A stretch of 35,292 bases of DNA from a virus (lineage: Duplodnaviria > Heunggongvirae > Uroviricota > Caudoviricetes), in IMG/VR virus record IMGVR_UViG_2802429231_000009. One strand, given 5' to 3'. The notes beneath the pieces were generated by a model that was given only the letters and a program-made list of their open reading frames with translations, had not been told where the DNA came from and did no database searches. Position 1 is the first letter of the stretch, and each line of letters opens with the position of its first letter. The position numbers were made by a program, and so were the translations under genes. Shown here piece after piece: positions 1-11,110 of this stretch.

Positions 1-1053
1 TTACGGGGTAATGCCAACCGCTGCCGCCACTTTGTCGCCACTTGGCAGCGTTGCCAGAGGATTGAAACGGAGCGCCGTTTCCAGATGATCCGGTGCCAGA
101 TGTGCGTAACGCATAGTCATTTTTATATCGTGGTGTCCGAGAATTTTTTGTAAGGCCAGAATGTTTCCACCCGACATCATGAAGTGCGCCGCAAACGTAT
201 GGCGCAGAACGTGTGTGAGTTGACCGCGAGGGAGCACGATAGACGTTTTTTCCATCACGGATAAAAATTGAAAATAGCAGTCTGTGAAGAAATTGAACCC
301 ATCAAGCGCCATGATCTCTTCGTAAAGCTCTTTACTGATAGGGATGCTTCTGTTTTTCTTCCCCTTCGTTCTGACAAAGGTAATTCGGTATTTGGTCACC
401 TGTGAGCGGGTAAGATTTACGGCTTCACGCCAGCGTGCGCCTGTGCTTAAGCATATCTTAACTACCAGTGCCAGAATTGGGTCCTGACGTTTGCAATCAG
501 CCAGCAATTCAACAATCTGCTCATGGGTAAGCCATGCCATCTCTTTTTCTGCGATGGTGAATTTTCGCATGTTCTCCAGTGGGTTCGGATACGACCATTC
601 GCCCAGACGGGATAGTTCGCTAAAAACACTACTTAGATAGCTTTGCTCCAGGTTAATGGTGACCGGGCTTGCTCCTTTCTTCCATTTCTCGCTGAAGTAG
701 ATCTCGCCTGTCAGGCGTTTATCTCGATAGTGGGCAAACATTTTAGAGGTGAGATCGGTTGCAAGAGGATTGCCTAGAGCGTCAACCATCAGCAGCAATT
801 TGTCATAGACATGCTGTCCAGCAGTCAGAGATTTACCATGTAGTTTGAACCATAGCTCAACCACGTCTTTCAGGGTTCGACGATCCACTGATTCGCCCAG
901 CCAGGGCTTTGATTCGGTTTCTTCCATCGTGTGACGCTCAAAAGCCAGAGCTTCGCCTTTGGTGGCGAATTGTTTACGCACACGACGCCCACTTCGTCCG
1001 GCGGGGTAACATTCGCAAAGCCATTTCCCTGTGGTGAGTTTTCGTACTGCCAT
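1..1053 (-). CDS. int: Phage tyrosine integrase (P2/186 Int family)
   Basis: ORF on minus strand ending with TAA at 1-3. Chosen start ATG at 1051-1053 preceded by GGAGGG, giving N-terminus MAVRKLTTGKW typical of this family. C-terminal LRHTFAAH...MTMRYAHL fits the tyrosine-recombinase R/HxxR/Y catalytic region. Confidence 0.88.
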   Translation of the reverse strand: MAVRKLTTGKWLCECYPAGRSGRRVRKQFATKGEALAFERHTMEETESKPWLGESVDRRTLKDVVELWFKLHGKSLTAGQHVYDKLLLMVDALGNPLATDLTSKMFAHYRDKRLTGEIYFSEKWKKGASPVTINLEQSYLSSVFSELSRLGEWSYPNPLENMRKFTIAEKEMAWLTHEQIVELLADCKRQDPILALVVKICLSTGARWREAVNLTRSQVTKYRITFVRTKGKKNRSIPISKELYEEIMALDGFNFFTDCYFQFLSVMEKTSIVLPRGQLTHVLRHTFAAHFMMSGGNILALQKILGHHDIKMTMRYAHLAPDHLETALRFNPLATLPSGDKVAAAVGITP

Positions 1054-1241
1054 AAAAAATGCCCTCCAGTAGAGAGCATTTTTACTGTATGTATAACCAG
1101 TGTCAATGTATGAAATCCTACGACCATACATCTCACTGAAGCCATAATGAAGTTGGCTATTCTTTTTGCTATGTGAGCATGTAACTTTTGCGGTTAACCT
1201 GCGGCTCATTTTTATTTTAGACGCAGATATAAAAACAAAAG

Positions 1242-1433
1242 TTATCGTGAGTTTTTAGTACAGATTTTTTTGGATTTACTAATAGTTCCATCATTGCAAA
1301 CGAATTTGCCATCTGAGGTACAGTGAGAAACACCTCCCTTTTTCCCTGAGCAGGGATAATTTCTAGCATAGGTAGTTAGTGGGTTTAATAACAAAGAACA
1401 TGACAAAACCACAAAAAATACCTTACCAAGCAT
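1242..1433 (-). CDS. Small Cys-rich protein with N-terminal signal-peptide-like segment (possible moron)
   Basis: 63-aa ORF with strong GGGAGGA Shine-Dalgarno just upstream. N-terminus [23 protein letters not shown] is hydrophobic; mature part has 6 Cys. AT-rich, between int and cI. Confidence 0.4.
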
Positions 1434-1448
1434 AGTTTCCTCCCGGTA

Positions 1449-2105
1449 CTATTTAACATACTTGACTGTTAAACTTATAATTTTACCAATTATTTCAATG
1501 TCTTCTATCTTGCATTCGAAGGCTCTGTTTCCACCCTCGACGAAGATTCTTCCACCGGGTAAACGAGTAATGTCACGGATCGTTATTTCGCCATCAATAC
1601 TTATTACCCATTTACCATCACGTATATCATCAAATTCTTTATCACAAATAAATTCAGAATTGTTATCTGTGATGACAAAAGGTTTTTTAAACGTAGAGGG
1701 TAGAAATCCCTTATCAAAAATATAAAAACCGTCTTTCTGCAATGCTCCATCAGACAATAAATATTTTTCTACTTCTATAGTATTTGTATTTGCTGATGCT
1801 TGCTTTGAACCATGCCCTGTTGTTAGCCAATTAAGCGAGGTGCCCGTTTCAAGGGCGCACTGGATTACCCAATCTGCTGGAAAAATATCACGCATATAGC
1901 GCGTTGCCATGGTGCTCTTAGAAACACCTAAATGATCACAGAGAGCCTGACGAGTACCGAACCCATATGCTTCAACTAAACGTTCTATGGCTTTCTTACC
2001 GCCGCTATTGAAATCCACAAGTCCTCCAAAGAAATCCAAAATTCGTTGACAGATTCCAAAAGCGATCTTAAAGTTGAACCAGAAGTGTTCTTTTGGAGCC
2101 TTCAC
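1449..2105 (-). CDS. cI: Phage immunity repressor, 186 CI-like (HTH)
   Basis: 218-aa ORF, GTG start, divergent from apl-like gene. HTH-like segment ERLVEAYGFGTRQALCDHLGVSKSTMATRYMR. Position between int and apl/cII as in 186. Confidence 0.65.
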   Translation of the reverse strand: MKAPKEHFWFNFKIAFGICQRILDFFGGLVDFNSGGKKAIERLVEAYGFGTRQALCDHLGVSKSTMATRYMRDIFPADWVIQCALETGTSLNWLTTGHGSKQASANTNTIEVEKYLLSDGALQKDGFYIFDKGFLPSTFKKPFVITDNNSEFICDKEFDDIRDGKWVISIDGEITIRDITRLPGGRIFVEGGNRAFECKIEDIEIIGKIISLTVKYVK

Positions 2106-2163
2106 TACTAATCACGACAAACAACGGCTCGCCACAAGCCATATCTAGAAGGAATGTTGCCTT

Positions 2164-2367
2164 ATGACACCTAACATTTCAATTACTCTGAATACACCAC
2201 ATGTCACAATCGAACGTTATAGCGAACTGACTGGCCTTTCTATTGATACGATTAACGACATGTTGGCTGATGGCCGACTACCTCGTCATCGTCTTCGTAA
2301 AGACAAAAAACGTGAAAAGGTAATGATTAACCTGGCTGCTCTGACTGTTGATGCTTTGTCTGCTTAA
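2164..2367 (+). CDS. apl: Apl/Cox-like excisionase and switch regulator
   Basis: 67-aa basic protein, first gene rightward of the repressor, immediately upstream of cII-like gene. Assignment by position and size. Confidence 0.55.
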
Positions 2368-2431
2368 TAGACGTCTATTTTCGCAATAAGACGCTGAGTT
2401 CGATTTTGCGATAAGTTCGGAGTTGAAAACC

Positions 2432-2941
2432 ATGTTTGATTACCAAGTTTCCAAACATCCACATTTTGATGAAGCCTGTCGTGCATTCGCACTGCGCCAC
2501 AATCTGGTGCAACTGGCAGAACGTGCGGGCATGAATGTGCAGATTCTGCGGAACAAGCTGAACCCAGCTCAACCTCATTTATTAACCGCACCAGAAATCT
2601 GGCTGCTTACCGATCTGACTGAAGATTCAACGTTGGTAGATGGTTTTCTGGCACAGATTCATTGTCTGCCATGTGTACCGATTAATGAGGTAGCAAAAGA
2701 GAAACTGCCACATTACGTCATGAGTGCAACCGCAGAGATCGGGCGTGTTGCTGCAGGTGCGGTATCTGGCGATGTAAAAACCAGTGCAGGTCGTCGTGAT
2801 GCTATCAGCAGCATTAACTCTGTAACACGACTGATGGCGCTGGCGGCTGTTTCATTGCAGGCCCGTTTACAGGCTAATCCTGCGATGGCGAGTGCAGTTG
2901 ATACCGTGACTGGCCTCGGTGCTTCATTCGGTTTGCTGTGA
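2432..2941 (+). CDS. cII: 186 CII-like lysogeny establishment activator
   Basis: Protein [19 protein letters not shown]... closely resembles 186 CII as I recall it. ATG at 2432 with GGAG 9 nt upstream preferred over the TTG at 2423 used by the ORF track. Confidence 0.72.
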
Positions 2942-2948
2942 GGTGCTT

Positions 2949-3245
2949 ATGCTGACGAAAGAACCATCATTTGCATCGCTGCTGGTAAAACAAAGCCCGG
3001 CAATGCACTACGGTCACGGCTGGATCATGGGTGAGGATGGTAAACGCTGGCATCCGTGCCGTTCACAAGATGAATTGCTGTCTGAATTGACCACGGGGAA
3101 ACGGAGAAAGTCAAAATGTATGCAGCGGAAAGTGAAGTGGTTTATCAGTTTCGTTACAGAGGGGAGAGTTATTCAGTACCTGAAGATGATTTGCTCTGTT
3201 GTTATCCGTCGTTGTCGGGCGATGGCAGTTACTTTTTCACGCTAA
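2949..3245 (+). CDS. Hypothetical early protein (Fil-like position)
   Basis: ATG at 2949 with GAGGTG upstream. N-terminal part looks protein-like, C-terminal part is low-complexity and overlaps the 3116 ORF in another frame. Confidence 0.3.
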   Translation: MLTKEPSFASLLVKQSPAMHYGHGWIMGEDGKRWHPCRSQDELLSELTTGKRRKSKCMQRKVKWFISFVTEGRVIQYLKMICSVVIRRCRAMAVTFSR

Positions 3246-3340
3246 AGGATGGGACGTTTTTACGGGGAGAGCAGGTTAAAGAGACGATACGAAAAAATGT
3301 ATCTCCTCTTGAACGTTACCGTAAGAACAAAGAACGATAG
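3116..3340 (+). CDS. Hypothetical early protein
   Basis: 74-aa ORF with ACGGAG RBS about 8 nt upstream; composition looks protein-like. Confidence 0.4.
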   Translation: MYAAESEVVYQFRYRGESYSVPEDDLLCCYPSLSGDGSYFFTLKDGTFLRGEQVKETIRKNVSPLERYRKNKER

Positions 3341-3362
3341 TTGCGTTTTGGGGATATGAATT

Positions 3363-3704
3363 ATGGCAATTAATGGCGCTGCGGCGACTGTTCCATTAAG
3401 CCCCGGTGAACGCCTGAATGGACTTAATCACATTGCGGAGTTAAGGGCGAAAGTTTTTGGCCTGAATATTGAGTCAGAGCTTGAGCGGTTTATTAAAGAT
3501 ATGCGTGATCCACGGGATATCAATAGCGAACAAAATAAACGGGCACTGGCTGCCATATTCTTTATGGCAAAAATTCCAGCTGAACGTCATAGCATCAGCA
3601 TTAATGAGCTGACCACTGACGAAAAGCGGGAGTTGATTAAAGCAATGAATCATTTTCGTGCAGTGGTGAGCTTATTTCCCAGACGGCTAACCATGCCGAA
3701 TTAA
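3363..3704 (+). CDS. Hypothetical early protein
   Basis: 113-aa ORF in the early rightward operon. Confidence 0.5.
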   Translation: MAINGAAATVPLSPGERLNGLNHIAELRAKVFGLNIESELERFIKDMRDPRDINSEQNKRALAAIFFMAKIPAERHSISINELTTDEKRELIKAMNHFRAVVSLFPRRLTMPN

Positions 3705-3771
3705 CCAGCTAATGAAATTAATGGCGTAAACCCGCCGGGCATCCCTTTATCTAAATTCAGGAGAATTGATT

Positions 3772-4005
3772 ATGCGTAATATTGAAACCCTCACGACTAA
3801 AACCGGACCGGATGACGCAGGGCTTAATATTTTACTGACAGAGGCTCGTCTGGAAGAACGCCGGGCAAGGGCTGAAGCAATGGCTGCCCGCCTTGATAGT
3901 CTTGCGTGTCATATCACATCCCGCCAGCTAAACCACGTCGAAGCGGCAGAACTGCTGCGTGTGACCGCTGAAGCAATCCAGAACGAAGCGCAGGAGATCC
4001 ACTAA
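3772..4005 (+). CDS. Hypothetical early protein
   Basis: ATG at 3772 preceded by CAGGAGAA; 77 aa; its stop overlaps the next start. Confidence 0.5.
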   Translation: MRNIETLTTKTGPDDAGLNILLTEARLEERRARAEAMAARLDSLACHITSRQLNHVEAAELLRVTAEAIQNEAQEIH

Positions 4006-4232
4006 TGGCTGATGCAATGGATCTCGTACAGCAGCGCGTTGAAGAAGAACGCCAGCGCCATATCCGTGCTGCCCGTGCCAAAACACCGGGCGTGTCTCGC
4101 GTGCTTTGCATTGAATGTGAAGCGCCAATTCCGCCAGCACGCCGCCGCGCCATTCCAGGAGTGCAGCTTTGCATTACCTGTCAGGAAATCGCAGAGCTGA
4201 AAGGCAAACATTACAACGGAGGTGCTGTATGA
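4005..4232 (+). CDS. TraR/DksA-family C4 zinc-finger protein
   Basis: 75 aa with CIEC-x17-CITC four-cysteine motif. Confidence 0.7.
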
Positions 4233-4531
4233 CAGGGGCTGTGCGTATCCATCAATTAAAAATTGCACCTAAGTATTTCAACGCTGTGGTTGCAGGTCAA
4301 AAGACGGCTGAACTTCGTAAAGACGATCGTGGCTATAAAGTTGGTGATGTTCTTTCTCTTTGCGAATGGAAGCATGGCGTATTTACGGGTAGGGAATGGG
4401 CCGCGGTTATCTCTCATGTGCTTCCGGTTAATGACGTCATGGCAGTTTCAGAACAATGGGTGATGCTATCAATTCGCTCATTAACCCCATTAGAAGCTTT
4501 AGGATATGTTATTGCAGGAGGTGCTGTATGA
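4229..4531 (+). CDS. Hypothetical protein, ASCH/DUF3850-like
   Basis: ATG at 4229 overlaps previous stop (ATGA); its stop overlaps the dam start. 100 aa. Confidence 0.5.
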
Positions 4532-5385
4532 GCACCATCCTGAAATGGGCGGGTAATAAAACCACCATTATGTCCGAACTGAAAAAATACCTTCCTGCTG
4601 GCACGCGACTGGTTGAACCTTTCGCGGGTTCTTGTGCTGTGATGATGGAGACGGATTACCCCAGCTATCTGGTTGCGGATATTAATCCTGATTTAATCAA
4701 CCTCTATAAAAAGGTTGCTGCTGATTGTGAGGCGTTTATATCTCGTGCCAGAGCTTTATTTGAGGAAGCAAACAGAGAGGTGGCTTATTACAACATAAGG
4801 CAGGAGTTTAATTACTCCACTGAAATTACTGATTTCATGAAAGCGGTATATTTTCTGTATCTCAATCGTCATGGTTACCGTGGGCTATGTCGCTATAACA
4901 AGAGCGGGTATTTCAACATTCCCTACGGTAATTATAAAAATCCGTATTTCCCTGAAAAAGAAATTCGCGCATTTGCAGAGAAAGCCCAGCGGGCAACGTT
5001 TATCTGCGCCAGCTTTGATGAAACGCTGGCGATGTTGAAGGCGGGGGATGTGGTGTATTGCGATCCGCCTTATGACGGTACGTTTTCCGGCTATCACACT
5101 GATGGCTTCACTGAAGATGACCAGTATCACCTGGCATCCGTTCTTGAACATCGATCATCTGAAGGTCATCCGGTCATTGTTTCTAACAGTGACACATCCC
5201 TGATCCGTTCGCTGTATCGCAATTTTACTCACCACTACATCAAGGCAAAACGCAGCATCGGCGTGGCAGCTGGTGAGAGTAAATCTGCAACAGAAATCAT
5301 CGCTGTTTCCGGGCCGCGCTGCTGGGTAGGATTTGATCCTTCGCGTGGCGTGGATTGTTCCGTCGTGTACGGAGTGCGTGCATGA
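4528..5385 (+). CDS. dam: DNA adenine methyltransferase (Dam-like, N6-adenine)
   Basis: N-terminus [18 protein letters not shown] segment and DPPY catalytic motif (VYCDPPYDG). Start ATG 4528 overlaps upstream stop. Confidence 0.85.
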
Positions 5386-7796
5386 GCCATGCTGATATGA
5401 ACAACTGCAGCGGCTTTAACGAGGTCGCCGCAGCATTCTCATGGAACAGCCCGAAAAAGGCCATTAACCCTTATCTGGACCCGGCGGAAGTTGCGCCGGT
5501 TTCTGCGCTTTCAAACCTGATCACTCTGTACGCTGCCGATAACGAGCAGGAACAACTGCGCCGCGAGGCACTGAGTGATCAGGTCTGGGAGCGTTATTTC
5601 TTTAATGAATCCCGTGATCCTGTCCAACGCGAAATGGAGCAGGATAAGCTAATTAGCCGGGCAAAGCTGGCGCATGAGCAGCAGCGTTTTAATCCAGACA
5701 TGGCCATTCTGGCGGACGTCAACGCCCAGCCTTCCCATATCAGCAAGCCGCTGATGCAACGTATTAAATACTTCAGCAGCCTGGGCAGGCCAAAGGCTTA
5801 TTCCCGCTATTTGCGTGAGACGATTAAGCCATGCTTGGAACGACTGGAGCATGTACGCGACAGTCAGCTATCCACTTCTTTTCGCTTTATGGCAAGCCAT
5901 GAAGGGCTGGACGGCCTGCTGATCCTGCCTGAAATGAGTCAGGATCAGGTGAAACGCCTGTCCACCTTGGTAGCTGCGCATATGAGCATGTGCCTTGATA
6001 CAGCTTGTGGCGATTTGTATGCCACCGATGATGTTACGCCAGAAGAAATCCGCAAGACATGGGAAAAGGTGGCAGCGGAAACCCTGCGTCTGGATGTTAT
6101 CCCGCCTGCGTTTGAGCAACTCTGTCGGAAAAGAAACCGCCGTAAACCCGTGCCTTATGAACTCATTCCGGGTTCGCTGGCGCGTATGTTATGCGCCGAC
6201 TGGTGGTATCGGAAATTATGGAAGATGCGTTGCGAATGGCGGGAAGAGCAGTTGCGTGCTGTTTGCCTGGTCAGCAAAAAAGCATCTCCCTATGTCAGCT
6301 ATGAAGCCGTGATGCATAAACGTGAGCAGCGCCGTAAGTCGCTGGAGTTTTTCCGTTCTCATGAACTGGTGAACGAAGACGGCGACACGCTGGATATGGA
6401 AGACGTGGTAAACGCCAGCAGCAGCAACCCTGCGCATCGCCGCAATGAGATGATGGCCTGTGTTAAAGGTCTGGAGCTTATCGCGGAAATGCGTGGTGAC
6501 TGCGCCGTTTTCTACACCATCACCTGTCCGTCACGTTTCCATTCCACGCTAAATAACGGCAGGCCCAACCCGACCTGGACAAATGCGACGGTAAGACAAA
6601 GCAGTGATTATCTGGTCGGTATGTTTGCTGCATTTCGTAAGGCTATGCACAAAGCCGGGTTGCGCTGGTATGGCGTGCGGGTGGCTGAGCCGCATCATGA
6701 CGGCACAGTTCACTGGCACCTGTTGTGTTTCATGCGCAAAAAAGACCGCCGCGCCATTACTGCATTGTTGCGTAAGTTTGCCATCCGTGAAGACCGCGAG
6801 GAGCTGGGCAATAACACGGGGCCGCGCTTTAAGTCTGAGCTGATAAACCCGCGCAAAGGAACGCCGACAAGCTACATTGCGAAATATATCAGTAAGAATA
6901 TTGACGGGCGTGGTCTGGCTGGCGAGATCAGTAAGGAAACGGGTAAATCCCTGCGTGATAACGCTGAATACGTTAATGCCTGGGCGTCTCTGCATCGTGT
7001 TCAGCAATTCCGCTTCTTTGGCATTCCGGGGCGTCAGGCTTACCGTGAACTGCGATTGCTGGCTGGTCAGGCGGCAAGGCAACAGGGTGACAAAAAAGCA
7101 GGTGCGCCGGTACTGGATAACCCGCGCCTTGATGCCATCCTGGCTGCTGCTGATGCTGGTTGTTTTGCCACCTACATCATGAAGCAGGGCGGCGTACTGG
7201 TTCCCCGCAAATATCACCTCATCAGAACCGCTTATGAAATCAACGAAGAGCCAACCGCCTATGGCGATCACGGTATTCGTATTTATGGCATCTGGTCACC
7301 CATTGCAGAGGGCAAGATCTGCACTCATGCAGTGAAGTGGAAAATGGTTCGTAAGGCCGTTGACGTTCAGGAGGCGGCAGCCGACCAGGGCGCTTGCGCC
7401 CCTTGGACTCGTGGCAATAACTGTCCCCTTGCGGAAAATTTGAACCAACAGGAGAAAGATAAATCAGCTGATGGGGACACCAGAACGGACATTACCCGCA
7501 TGGATGACAAGGAGTTGCACGATTACCTGCACAGTATGAGCAAAAAAGAGCGCCGGGAACTGGCAGCAAGGTTACGCCTGGTGAAGCCGAAACGGCGTAG
7601 AGACTACAAACAGCGAATTACAGACCATCAACGACAGCAGCTCGTCTATGAACTGAAGTCCAGAGGATTTGATGGCAGCGAGAAAGAGGTCGATTTACTC
7701 CTTCGCGGTGGCAGTATTCCGTCAGGAGCAGGCCTGCGTATCTTCTATCGGAACCAGCGTTTGCAGGAAGATGATAAGTGGCGGAATCTGTATTAA
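5382..7796 (+). CDS. A: Rolling-circle replication initiator (P2 gpA / 186 RepA, HUH endonuclease)
   Basis: HUH motif in [10 protein letters not shown] and tyrosine motif [12 protein letters not shown]. About 804 aa. ATG at 5382 overlaps dam stop (ATGA), preferred over the upstream start at 5355. Confidence 0.9.
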
Positions 7797-7890
7797 TTAC
7801 GCGGGTTAACAATTCGTGCTCTTAATAATACCAGGCATATCAGGCTGATGAACGTAAAAAAACGTTTTACATCAGTAAGATTATTATATA

Positions 7891-7906
7891 CTGTAAATAT
7901 AAACAG
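7891..7906. promoter_or_regulatory. LexA (SOS) box CTGT-N8-ACAG
   Basis: TACTGTAAATATAAACAGTG matches the LexA operator consensus; 43 bp upstream of the 7949 ORF. Confidence 0.6.
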
Positions 7907-7948
7907 TGGTTATGTATACAGTATTGCTTTGGTGTCATAGGAGGAAAG

Positions 7949-8137
7949 ATGCAGGACTATTTTTTGGAGTCTTTGAAGCTCCAGCGCATTGATTTTTTTC
8001 TTAAGCTTGTAGCGGCTAGTGAGTGTAGTGATGAAGAGAAGGGGCTGGCCCTGCAGTGGGTTTCTGAACTGACAGATGAACTCATGGCAAAAATCAGAAC
8101 CCACGAATACAACCGCTCAATGGATGTCATCAGCTGA
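7949..8137 (+). CDS. Small SOS-regulated protein, possible Tum-like antirepressor component
   Basis: 62-aa ORF immediately downstream of the LexA box and upstream of the DinI-like gene. Confidence 0.45.
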   Translation: MQDYFLESLKLQRIDFFLKLVAASECSDEEKGLALQWVSELTDELMAKIRTHEYNRSMDVIS

Positions 8138-8147
8138 GGTGACTTTT

Positions 8148-8381
8148 ATGCGCATTGAAATAATGATCGATAAAGAGCAGAAGATTAGCCAGTCTACACT
8201 GGACGCCCTTGAATCCGAGCTTTACCGCAATCTGCGCCCCCTGTATCCCAAAACGGTAATTCGTATCCGCAAAGGTAGCTCTAACGGTGTGGAACTGACC
8301 GGACTGCAACTGGACGAAGAAAGAAAACAAGTGATGAAAATTATGCAGAAGGTGTGGGAAGACGACAGCTGGCTGCATTAA
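8148..8381 (+). CDS. DinI-family protein
   Basis: MRIEIMIDKEQKISQSTLDALESELYRNL...KVWEDDSWL resembles E. coli DinI (MRIEV...ETWESADDWF). GAGGTGA RBS before the ATG at 8148. Confidence 0.78.
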   Translation: MRIEIMIDKEQKISQSTLDALESELYRNLRPLYPKTVIRIRKGSSNGVELTGLQLDEERKQVMKIMQKVWEDDSWLH

Positions 8382-8514
8382 GAAACGTTGCTGGCGTCTG
8401 AACTTGTTTCTGGCGTCAGCAAGGTTGAACAACGAGCCCTTGCGAGGCGTTAGCTCTGTAGTGCATGTCTATGCCGCATGAGATCGCATGATCGTTTGAG
8501 GATCGTTTTTGCTA

Positions 8515-8541
8515 AGGCCCGCCAGAACTGGCGGGCTTTTG
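8515..8541 (+). terminator. Rho-independent terminator-like hairpin
   Basis: GCCCGCC-AGAACT-GGCGGGC stem-loop followed by TTTT, downstream of the DinI-like gene. Confidence 0.5.
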
Positions 8542-8586
8542 CGTAGATCATGCAGGTGCATGAAAACCACTACATAAAGCGGGCAG

Positions 8587-8605
8587 GCGTGGCGGGGATA
8601 CGAGC
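8587..8605. other. Putative cos (cohesive end) site
   Basis: GGCGTGGCGGGGATACGAG resembles the 19-nt P2/186 cohesive-end sequence as I recall it, at the expected position before the portal side. Confidence 0.4.
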
Positions 8606-8742
8606 GCGCGTTGTGGCTTGCAGCGGTGATTCTTTACATTGTGTTATCTTGAATTTATTGTAGCATTTTCGTAACAAACTAAGGTTCTTCGATTGCATAG
8701 ATAGGAAAAAGTGTTTGTTTGTTAGTCACTGCTTGATTACAC

Positions 8743-8765
8743 TCGTCTACTCTTGAAGTAGACGA
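8743..8765. promoter_or_regulatory. Perfect inverted repeat, candidate operator upstream of the cargo operon
   Basis: TCGTCTAC-TCTTGAA-GTAGACGA, about 55 bp upstream of the 8821 start. Confidence 0.3.
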
Positions 8766-8820
8766 TAGGTATTCGCTAGCACTTTAGGGTAATCAAACAA
8801 CCTGTAAAGAGAGGATTATT

Positions 8821-9393
8821 GTGCAGGTAGTTCATATAGGGTTTCATAACTGCCTTAATCGTGGCAGTTATGAGACGATACGGCAAAGCGTACCCTTTTT
8901 AAGCCGTTCAGGCCCTAAACAATGGTTAACTCAAGGTTACTATTTTTGGACTGATGACCCATACTGGGCTCATCAGTGGAACGAAGGTCATGATACGGTC
9001 ATTAGTGAATTTTCTATCACCTTTGATTCAAAGGATGAGTTGCTTGATTTGGTTGGAAATGCTCGAGATATCAGGCAATTTGAAGCTATGCGTCAGAAAG
9101 TTGCCAGTACTTTGACTCGAATGAGCGCCTTGCATATCACAGTCAATCAGGTCATTAGCTTTTTTAGAGAGCTCGAGCAATCTGATGATTTTAAAGGCGT
9201 ATTTCCATATGCTGCTGTTAAGGCACAAGATAGTACGAAAGTGTCTAATCTTATAAGACTTAACTTTGTAGATGAGCGCCCAGAACAGATGGTTTCATTT
9301 ACCCGTCAGCAAATGTGTGTTTATGAACATGCTCGAGGTAAGATAGAGTTTAGAAGATTTATCTTTCCAGAGCATTTCTGTGAGAAGGATTAA
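8821..9393 (+). CDS. Cargo gene 1: uncharacterised 190-aa protein, candidate toxin/effector
   Basis: GTG start with AAGAGAGGA RBS, in an AT-rich island. No family recognised; contains an R-x4-H (RMSALH) motif of uncertain meaning. Confidence 0.55.
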   Translation: MQVVHIGFHNCLNRGSYETIRQSVPFLSRSGPKQWLTQGYYFWTDDPYWAHQWNEGHDTVISEFSITFDSKDELLDLVGNARDIRQFEAMRQKVASTLTRMSALHITVNQVISFFRELEQSDDFKGVFPYAAVKAQDSTKVSNLIRLNFVDERPEQMVSFTRQQMCVYEHARGKIEFRRFIFPEHFCEKD

Positions 9394-9402
9394 GGAGGAA
9401 AA

Positions 9403-9636
9403 ATGCTTTCCTTTGAACAAAGAATGGCCTTACTTAACAAGGCATTACAGCAGTATACTCCTGAGTCGCTTTATGAAAAATTAAGCTCGTACCCGGCTTA
9501 TGGACCAACAATCGTAAGCTACGAGCTTCCAAGCTCCGAAGGGTTCATTACATTGAGACCACGTCTGATCAATCATGCTGCTGAACGTTCAGTGGATTTC
9601 TTTTCAGATGATACTGAATTGGATTTAGCGGCCTGA
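9403..9636 (+). CDS. Cargo gene 2: uncharacterised 77-aa protein, candidate antitoxin
   Basis: Strong AAGGAGGA RBS; 9-nt gap from gene 1 and 2-nt gap to gene 3; acidic C-terminus. Confidence 0.5.
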   Translation: MLSFEQRMALLNKALQQYTPESLYEKLSSYPAYGPTIVSYELPSSEGFITLRPRLINHAAERSVDFFSDDTELDLAA

Positions 9637-9638
9637 CG

Positions 9639-10028
9639 ATGAAACTAAGATTACGGGATAATACTGTTACTCGACTGTTGTTTGTCGATGCTGAAGGGCG
9701 CAAAATCGAATCTGGTTTTGCGCTTCGATTTAAGCCCATTTTTGATGAAAATCCGCGCGAATTTTCAGTATTGTTTGATTTTTATTACATTACTGAGAAT
9801 GATCGGGCATTACGAGTCGAGTTTCAAAGTGTTTTTGAAACAGATAAAGACATTGACGATTCTTTTAAAGAATCGAAGTTTCCAGTTGTTAATGCTCCTG
9901 CGATATCGTTCCCGTTTTTACGTTCGTTTGTTGCCAATTTTTTGATGACAAGTGGGTATACACCGATCCTGCTTCCTAGCTTTAACTTTACAACTTTTGA
10001 ACAGGATATCGGGAAGTTTCCTAACTGA
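9639..10028 (+). CDS. Cargo gene 3: SecB-like chaperone family protein (putative)
   Basis: C-terminal NAPAISFPFLRSFVANFLMTSGYTPILLPSFNF parallels E. coli SecB [32 protein letters not shown] (from memory). 129 aa, translationally coupled to gene 2. Confidence 0.55.
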   Translation: MKLRLRDNTVTRLLFVDAEGRKIESGFALRFKPIFDENPREFSVLFDFYYITENDRALRVEFQSVFETDKDIDDSFKESKFPVVNAPAISFPFLRSFVANFLMTSGYTPILLPSFNFTTFEQDIGKFPN

Positions 10029-10030
10029 GA

Positions 10031-10057
10031 AAAGGGCTATGTTTAGCCCTTTTTTAT
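10031..10057. terminator. Terminator-like hairpin between convergent cargo operon and portal gene
   Basis: AAAGGGCTA-TGTT-TAGCCCTTTTTT with A-run on one side and T-run on the other. Confidence 0.5.
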
Positions 10058-10066
10058 TAAGTTGAT

Positions 10067-11110
10067 TCAATTTTTATCTAAGCTCATGGTGTAAGGCTCG
10101 AAGCGGATCACTTCTTCACCAAGCCAGTCGTTAAGCTCCTGTAGCCTTTTCTGTAGTGGGATAAGTTCGTTGCGAACAAAAACTTTGCTGGCTTTCTCTA
10201 CATCCCCAAAACCCCCAACATTATTCGGCATAATCCCCATCATCTGTGGCGGAACACGATGCGCGGCCATCATGTCATCACGACTCACGTTCTTGATGTT
10301 CAGAAATTCATCTTTCGCTGCGACTTCTGACAACGGGATGATCTGAAGCCCGTCCTTTTTGCCGTTAGGCGAGTACATAAACAGGTTGCGGAAGTTACCC
10401 GGTCCTTTGGCGCTTTTCATCGCGTGGCGGAGGTTGTTCACGTCCTCCTGGTTCTGCGCGGCATCGGTCATGTACATGATGAAGCCAGCATGACTGCCGT
10501 TTATGTAATACTTTCGACGGAACAGCGTGGCGGACTCATTGAGCAGGGCGGACGGAATAGCAGAAAGATAGCCGGGCAGGCCATAGATCTCCTGATTTAT
10601 GTCCGGTTCCATCAGATGGAAAATGCTGCCTTTCGTGAACTGATACGGCTGCGTGGTCATGCCGTATTGCACAAACCAGTAGGTATCCAGGTCTAACCCG
10701 CGTCGGGTGTATTTTGCCAGCGCAGGCTCAAGGGCGATAACTTCACTGAAGCGGTTAGTGCGTTTCTCCAGGTAGGCGTTACCAAATACCAGATAGTCCT
10801 GCACAAAACGCGAAAAAGCCTGCTGGCTGAGCAGCGGGTGAGGGATGTAGGTGCTGGTCAGAATGTTGCACTTCACCGCAATTGGTGAACTGTGATGCAC
10901 GGCAGCGCGGAAGGTGCGCGCCAGTCCGTCAAAGCTGACAGGAGGCTCATACCAGCGATCTGTCTGTACGCATTCCACATAGTCCAGCAGTTCGCGGCGG
11001 TCAAGTACAGGAACGGGATCACCGAAGCTGAATGCTTCGGCTGAAGTCTGGCTTTTATGCTTGAGCTGATTCGTCGCCGCAGCGCGGTTTTTCTTACTCT
11101 TTCCCATCAA
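10067..11110 (-). CDS. Q: Portal protein (P2 gpQ-like)
   Basis: 347 aa, P2-typical size and position, overlapping the terminase ATPase gene stop. Confidence 0.85.
   Translation of the reverse strand: MMGKSKKNRAAATNQLKHKSQTSAEAFSFGDPVPVLDRRELLDYVECVQTDRWYEPPVSFDGLARTFRAAVHHSSPIAVKCNILTSTYIPHPLLSQQAFSRFVQDYLVFGNAYLEKRTNRFSEVIALEPALAKYTRRGLDLDTYWFVQYGMTTQPYQFTKGSIFHLMEPDINQEIYGLPGYLSAIPSALLNESATLFRRKYYINGSHAGFIMYMTDAAQNQEDVNNLRHAMKSAKGPGNFRNLFMYSPNGKKDGLQIIPLSEVAAKDEFLNIKNVSRDDMMAAHRVPPQMMGIMPNNVGGFGDVEKASKVFVRNELIPLQKRLQELNDWLGEEVIRFEPYTMSLDKN

Follow-up and report, generated by a model that had tools for sequence, protein, structure and literature searches.

Positions 7,891–8,381 of the viral record IMGVR_UViG_2802429231_000009 (35,292 nucleotides; this whole stretch of DNA is referred to as the window) fall in what is very probably a LexA-repressed two-gene operon, tumA–tumB, belonging to a Fels-2-like Escherichia coli prophage of the P2/186 family, and SOS induction of the prophage would proceed via TumA. 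A module of this kind has already been described for Fels-2, PSP3 and 186-type prophages, and the present analysis adds no new biology to it. The account below concerns the evidence for the operon, the assignment of its two products, and a second LexA-like box that was encountered upstream of the integrase gene.

Gene order of the prophage

The window represents a Fels-2-like prophage from E. coli that belongs to the P2/186 family. Positions 1–2200 recur with 100% identity in the chromosome of E. coli strain C51, and the prophage looks whole, because its late region matches complete Klebsiella phage genomes with 96% identity across ~22 kb. The genes that frame the operon are the following:

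1–1053, minus strand: int
1242–1433, minus strand: 63-aa ORF with a signal-peptide-like N-terminus, between cI and int
1449–2018, minus strand: cI, 186-type immunity repressor of 189 aa with a GTG start (Pfam Phage_CI_repr, E = 3.3e-31; Phage_CI_C, E = 4.7e-29)
after cI and before gene A: apl-like and cII-like genes, further early genes, then dam
5355–7796: replication gene A (gpA; Pfam Phage_GPA, E = 8e-128)
10067–11110: portal gene

The start codon of cI was inferred from an alignment of CI proteins, and the encoded repressor is 33% identical to 186 CI. The tumA–tumB pair is placed directly after replication gene A and before the late genes, in a genome with a 186-type CI. The 63-aa ORF, which is labelled 'YdcA family protein' in RefSeq where a counterpart occurs in some identical or near-identical E. 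coli genomes, is a moron-like insertion separating int from cI; homology to Klebsiella phage 4LV2017 begins only at ~1111, adjoining the int promoter. An Rfam scan of positions 900–10100 returned a single match, below threshold.

Further downstream, between tumB and the portal gene and thus at the position of tin and old in P2, three plus-strand ORFs of low GC content (8821–10028; ~0.40 versus 0.53) constitute a PD-T4-9 A/B/C defence system. PADLOC matches its A, B and C components with E values of 2.8e-96, 5.1e-39 and 1.1e-60, respectively, and PD-T4-9_C additionally has a weak Pfam match to SecB (1.7e-5).

A predicted LexA operator overlapping the promoter of tumA

The first-pass annotation had proposed a LexA box upstream of a 62-aa ORF that is followed by a DinI-family gene. 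This arrangement is borne out by an exact and conserved match to the pattern TACTGT-N8-ACAGT and by a Pfam DinI match, and the elements of the operon are assigned as follows:

7866–7894, plus strand: p95-type promoter (−35 TTTACA at 7866–7871, 17-nt spacer, −10 TACTGT at 7889–7894)
7889–7908: predicted LexA operator TACTGTAAATATAAACAGTG, from the TACTGT-N8-ACAGT pattern and its conservation
7949–8137, plus strand: tumA, candidate antirepressor of 62 aa, from profile homology to the N-terminal part of 186 Tum
8148–8381, plus strand: tumB, DinI-family protein of 77 aa (Pfam PF06183; phrog_189)
8388–8422, plus strand: strong hairpin directly 3' of tumB, with an 11-bp perfect stem and without a U-tract (MFE fold; region z-score −3.8)
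8514–8540, plus strand: intrinsic terminator, with a TTTT tract 3' of the GC-rich stem GGCCCGCCA/TGGCGGGC(C)

The −10 hexamer of the promoter doubles as the left arm of the LexA box, and LexA bound at 7889–7908 would occlude the −10, since the two overlap. The annotated p95 promoter of 186 aligns with that of the window, with a −35 of TTCACA and a −10 of TACTGT within the LexA site; the −35 of the window is the better of the two, the layout is otherwise alike, and the same succession of −35, 17 nt and TACTGT is also present in divergent relatives. A consensus scan missed the promoter because its −10 matches at only three of the six positions.

The core motif CTGT-N8-ACAG occurs once in the whole window, at 7891–7906. 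Taken alone the core proves nothing, because 0.52 matches per window are expected by chance, and at least one was obtained in 41 of 100 shuffles. The longer pattern TACTGT-N8-ACAGT is matched exactly at 7889–7907, and the 20-mer at 7889–7908 agrees with the E. coli LexA consensus TACTGTATATATATACAGTA at 17 of 20 positions. When the upstream regions of six phages were aligned (the window, Fels-2, PSP3, 186, a Yersinia phage and an ESSI2-like phage), both box arms, TACTGT and ACAGT, proved invariant amid diverged flanks. A LexA box is present in all nine of the divergent tum/tumA loci, which include four distant metagenomic TumA homologues, at a distance of 35–61 nt 5' of the start codon. It is also present in 78 of 80 IMG/VR loci, all of which encode a TumA 100% identical to that of the window and are uninformative on box diversity. 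Furthermore, TumA homologues retain the box even where no DinI gene is adjacent.

The expected frequency of the 8-base core is what could be held in favour of a chance match in AT-rich intergenic DNA, in which case the operon would be constitutive or phage-controlled. We give this explanation almost no credence: across divergent phages the arms do not vary while the flanks and the centre do, the box always lies over the −10, and the 186 record assigns the homologous site to LexA, within a promoter annotated as SOS-dependent. By its conservation across divergent phages, the predicted LexA box of the window is more than a chance match.

A possible second LexA-like site, degenerate in that GTG replaces the left-arm CTG, is seen on the plus strand at 7904–7923 (CAGTGGTTATGTATACAGTA) and shares 5 nt with the first box. 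It has a counterpart in Fels-2 but in none of the other four phages of the alignment.

TumA corresponds to the N-terminal part of Tum in profile comparisons

The tumA start codon is preceded by GGAGG at 7940–7944. BLASTP of the 62-aa ORF against 186 Tum and against PSP3 TumA gave no match, nor did BLASTP of PSP3 TumA against 186 Tum, and searches of the ORF against Pfam, NCBIfam, the PDB sequence profile and PADLOC were equally without a match. In PHROGs the protein belongs to phrog_698 (E = 3.6e-38), a family of unknown function. Only profile methods detect the relationship between TumA and Tum. With hhalign, a profile of 34 diverse members of the TumA family was aligned to a second profile, built from the first 70 residues of 186 Tum and of its relatives, with 96.9% probability and E = 1.4e-10, residues 1–46 falling on residues 1–46 at ~18% identity in the profile alignment. 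A 60-aa Yersinia phage protein annotated as 'tum protein' was likewise aligned to TumA, at E = 2.8e-10. The match to PSP3 TumA alone, a comparison of a profile with a single sequence, is weak (E = 0.006, probability 6%) and in the same register. As judged from these profiles, the 62-aa ORF is remotely homologous to, and the counterpart of, the half of Tum that lies N-terminal to the DinI-like part.

At closer range, TumA is 98% identical to STM2728 of Fels-2. RefSeq and most phage records label tumA as encoding a 'hypothetical protein', and no Pfam or NCBIfam model covers TumA; the profile link to Tum would justify annotation of the TumA family. An AF2 model of TumA is a two-helix hairpin (pLDDT 89), for which Foldseek retrieved from the PDB only generic helical hairpins (E > 0.5), and the fold is uninformative.

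It could be argued that the operon is SOS-controlled and that TumA is no antirepressor, the prophage being induced in some other way, e.g., by RecA-dependent cleavage of CI, with the operon serving only to modulate the host SOS response through its DinI-like protein. PHROGs assigns no function to TumA, the link to Tum is remote, and CI of the window carries a faint Peptidase_S24 signal (E = 0.009; 16 bits versus a Pfam cut-off of 23.3), all of which would fit this scenario. However, the S24 match lies below the Pfam cut-off, and Phage_CI_C accounts better for the domain. TumA, on the other hand, resembles reported antirepressors, namely 186 Tum and, by personal communication, PSP3 TumA, in gene position and promoter architecture and is linked to them by profile homology, and the LexA box is retained by TumA homologues that are not followed by a DinI gene. 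We therefore regard this scenario as unlikely, and an antirepressor role of TumA as the favoured reading.

TumB and the end of the operon

TumB matches the Pfam DinI family PF06183 with E = 6.6e-23 and 81.3 bits, as compared with a cut-off of 24.2, and its PHROGs family, phrog_189, is described as 'RecA filament binding protein DinI'. It aligns with residues 71–145 of 186 Tum at 41% identity over 75 residues (E = 3e-24), is 78% identical to PSP3 TumB, and matches the solved structure of DinI (PDB code 1ghh) with E = 2.7e-6. Against the chromosomal DinI equivalog model, NCBIfam NF007893, TumB scores 42.7 bits, below the cut-off of 111 bits, and the activity of TumB may for that reason differ from that of DinI. 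On these scores TumB is classed as a phage paralogue and not as host DinI.

The tumB gene has a Shine-Dalgarno sequence of its own (GAGGTGA, 8136–8142) and begins after a gap of 10 nt from the tumA stop codon. A 101-aa ORF that starts at 8076 in another frame and overlaps tumA was rejected as the coding sequence; it is without the Shine-Dalgarno sequence seen before 8148, and relatives annotate the 77-aa form. Over the tumA stop codon and the tumB Shine-Dalgarno sequence lies a weak plus-strand hairpin (8126–8143; GTCATC-AGCTGA-GGTGAC, then TTTTATG), which could lower tumB translation or give partial termination; the fold of 8120–8155 (−9 kcal/mol, z −1.5) is not significant and is inside chance expectation.

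The terminator at 8514–8540 corresponds in position to t95a of 186 and is where the operon probably ends. A tblastn search of the window with 186 orf97 and Fels-2 STM2726 gave no match. Of the two alignments that had been suggested at the outset, the one to 186 Tum was successful (41% identity for the DinI ORF, profile alignment for the 62-aa ORF), and orf97 has no homologue in the window.

Two genes rather than a broken tum

A Tum-like module had been proposed from the sequence, and the DinI ORF does align to the C-terminal half of Tum and the 62-aa ORF, by hhalign, to its N-terminal half. The combined size is also about that of 186 Tum, as had been noted: the products of tumA and tumB amount to 139 aa in total versus 146 aa for Tum. 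Whether the two ORFs are separate genes or a split tum had been left unclear. The annotation of PSP3 and the literature (PMC3121763) decide for two genes: the equivalent pair in the PSP3 record is named tumA, with the note 'UV induction of prophage', and tumB, and two CDSs are annotated at the corresponding site of Fels-2. Lemire et al., who cite Bunny, Liu and Roth 2002, state that a stop codon splits tum in two in Fels-2 and PSP3, and that the upstream gene of the PSP3 pair carries antirepressor activity, the latter on the basis of a personal communication (PMC3121763).

Such a stop codon might instead have inactivated a single ancestral tum, leaving two remnants, in effect a pseudogene, and a prophage that is no longer SOS-inducible. 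The combined size and the order of the ORFs, which is that of the Tum halves, are compatible with this. Nevertheless, neither ORF is interrupted, and each is preceded by a Shine-Dalgarno sequence of its own. The pair is also kept in 80 loci in which TumA is 100% identical; the spacing of tumB behind tumA is constant in 78 of these, the remaining two being a partial match and a contig end. Fusion to DinI was found in 0 of 85 representatives of the TumA family, and standalone proteins of 63–78 aa are common in the 186-type N-terminal subfamily. In the 186 record itself internal starts are annotated that yield the DinI part separately, and some TumA homologues have no DinI gene beside them. In addition, Fels-2, whose tum is split, has been linked to the lethal effect of lexA-null mutations in Salmonella (PMC3121763, PMC12626290): every surviving lexA-null isolate had lost Fels-2 (PMC12626290, citing Bunny et al. 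2002). Inactivation of a single tum is accordingly judged to be very improbable. The genes tumA and tumB are distinct and not the pieces of a broken tum, and the fused Tum of 186 is the less common arrangement.

Proposed course of induction

By analogy with the homologues, LexA seated on the operator that overlaps the −10 would keep the promoter off in an undamaged lysogen. DNA damage would lead to RecA-stimulated self-cleavage of LexA, by which the promoter would be freed. The helical hairpin of TumA would then bind the 186-type CI and block the binding of CI to its operators, so that the early lytic promoter would fire. Sequence and conservation speak for LexA control of the promoter, and the later steps are modelled on 186, PSP3 and Fels-2. 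Tum is described as binding its cognate repressor and thereby preventing operator binding; such an activity, required for SOS induction, is known for 186 Tum and reported for PSP3 TumA (PMC3121763). TumB has its own ribosome-binding site for translation; to go by its DinI relatives, its probable target is RecA filaments, and it would tune the strength or duration of the SOS response. The 186 record carries the note 'modulates SOS induction'.

One TumA and many CI variants

Among the 80 IMG/VR loci with a TumA 100% identical to that of the window, the identity of CI to the window CI ranges from 38 to 100%. In the same loci the N-terminal helix-turn-helix domain is 69–100% identical to that of the window CI, and the C-terminal domain only 24–99%. 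Mean identities over all pairs of CI proteins are 77% for the N-terminal domain and 41% for the C-terminal domain. This correlation, and it is a correlation only, suggests that TumA targets the N-terminal DNA-binding domain of CI and may act across CI variants. One TumA could then co-induce several different Fels-2-like prophages within a cell.

Comparison with known prophage systems

The closest described relative is Fels-2 of Salmonella LT2, where STM2728/STM2726.1 and their upstream region show 97.4% DNA identity to the window over 91% of 901 bases, comprising promoter, LexA box and both genes, with the same intergenic gap of 10 nt. Fels-2 has an extra ORF of 243 aa, STM2726, after the DinI gene, which is missing from the window; the window for its part has a PD-T4-9 system further downstream. 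Int of the Fels-2 type abuts cI, whereas int of the window has its own promoter. The same module is found in Felsduovirus and in related Klebsiella and E. coli phages.

PSP3 shares with the window the split layout of tumA/tumB, the position after gene A and the LexA box (TACTGTATAAATATACAGTA), but its TumA is barely related in sequence to that of the window and its two genes lie 3 nt apart instead of 10. In 186, the SOS operon p95-tum-orf97 likewise has its LexA operator over the −10 and an antirepressor module followed by a DinI-like module, and the target of the antirepressor is again a 186-type CI. The two modules are fused in 186 into a single protein of 146 aa with internal starts, as opposed to two genes in the window, and 186 has orf97, of which the window has no homologue.

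More distant parallels are provided by Gifsy-1, -2 and -3 and Fels-1, in which LexA-repressed operons encode a small antirepressor (GfoA, GftA) and a DinI homologue, as in the window (PMC3121763). Their order is the reverse, with dinI first, and these phages are lambdoid, their repressors falling in the gfoR/gtgR group with DicA and RacR, which is treated apart from 186 CI (PMC3121763). The antirepressors of these operons are not confined to one repressor and can act on several in trans (PMC3121763).

P2 differs from the window in the manner the first-pass annotation had indicated: at the corresponding position it has orf91 (DUF3850), tin and old, and neither tum nor a DinI gene. A DinI-like nature of P2 orf91 was considered and dismissed, the annotation of the record being DUF3850.

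A LexA-like box in the int promoter

Upstream of int, two further elements were identified:

1078–1106, minus strand: near-consensus promoter TTGACA-17-AAAAAT with a LexA-like box in its spacer, from promoter scan and motif
1083–1102, minus strand: LexA-like box CACTGGTTATACATACAGTA, filling the spacer, 49 nt 5' of the int start codon

All 48 loci with this int type have the motif CTG-N10-CAG, positioned at −49 to −52. These loci represent 17 distinct sequence variants, in which the box centres differ and the upstream flanks are unrelated, and in ESSI2_ev129 the box is a perfect CTGT-N8-ACAG. Where int abuts cI, as in 186 and Fels-2, the box is absent (0 of 17 loci). A full-text literature search, of incomplete coverage, returned no description of the LexA-like box of int.

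Between the −10 and the int ATG, a hairpin with a U-tract (1082–1056, minus strand; −13.2 kcal/mol, z −3.7) includes the int Shine-Dalgarno sequence. The predicted transcription start of int is located inside the 5' arm of this hairpin, and a transcript initiated there would be without that arm and unstructured. This suggests that read-through transcription from cI would be terminated or translationally blocked, and that integrase would be made only from SOS-initiated transcripts. It is possible, although we consider it somewhat doubtful, that this prophage and many relatives of the same int type are wired to SOS at two points, i.e., the int box and tumA–tumB, with a TumA that is pan-specific by virtue of acting on the CI N-terminal domain.

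Distribution and significance

Of 5426 complete E. coli genomes, 1144 (21%) carry the module, in up to four copies each, and it also occurs in dozens of sequenced phages. SOS control of int and the pairing of one TumA with many CI variants could merit experiment. As for tumA–tumB itself, the module decides whether very common prophages of E. coli, Klebsiella and Salmonella are roused by DNA damage, such as that caused by quinolone antibiotics.
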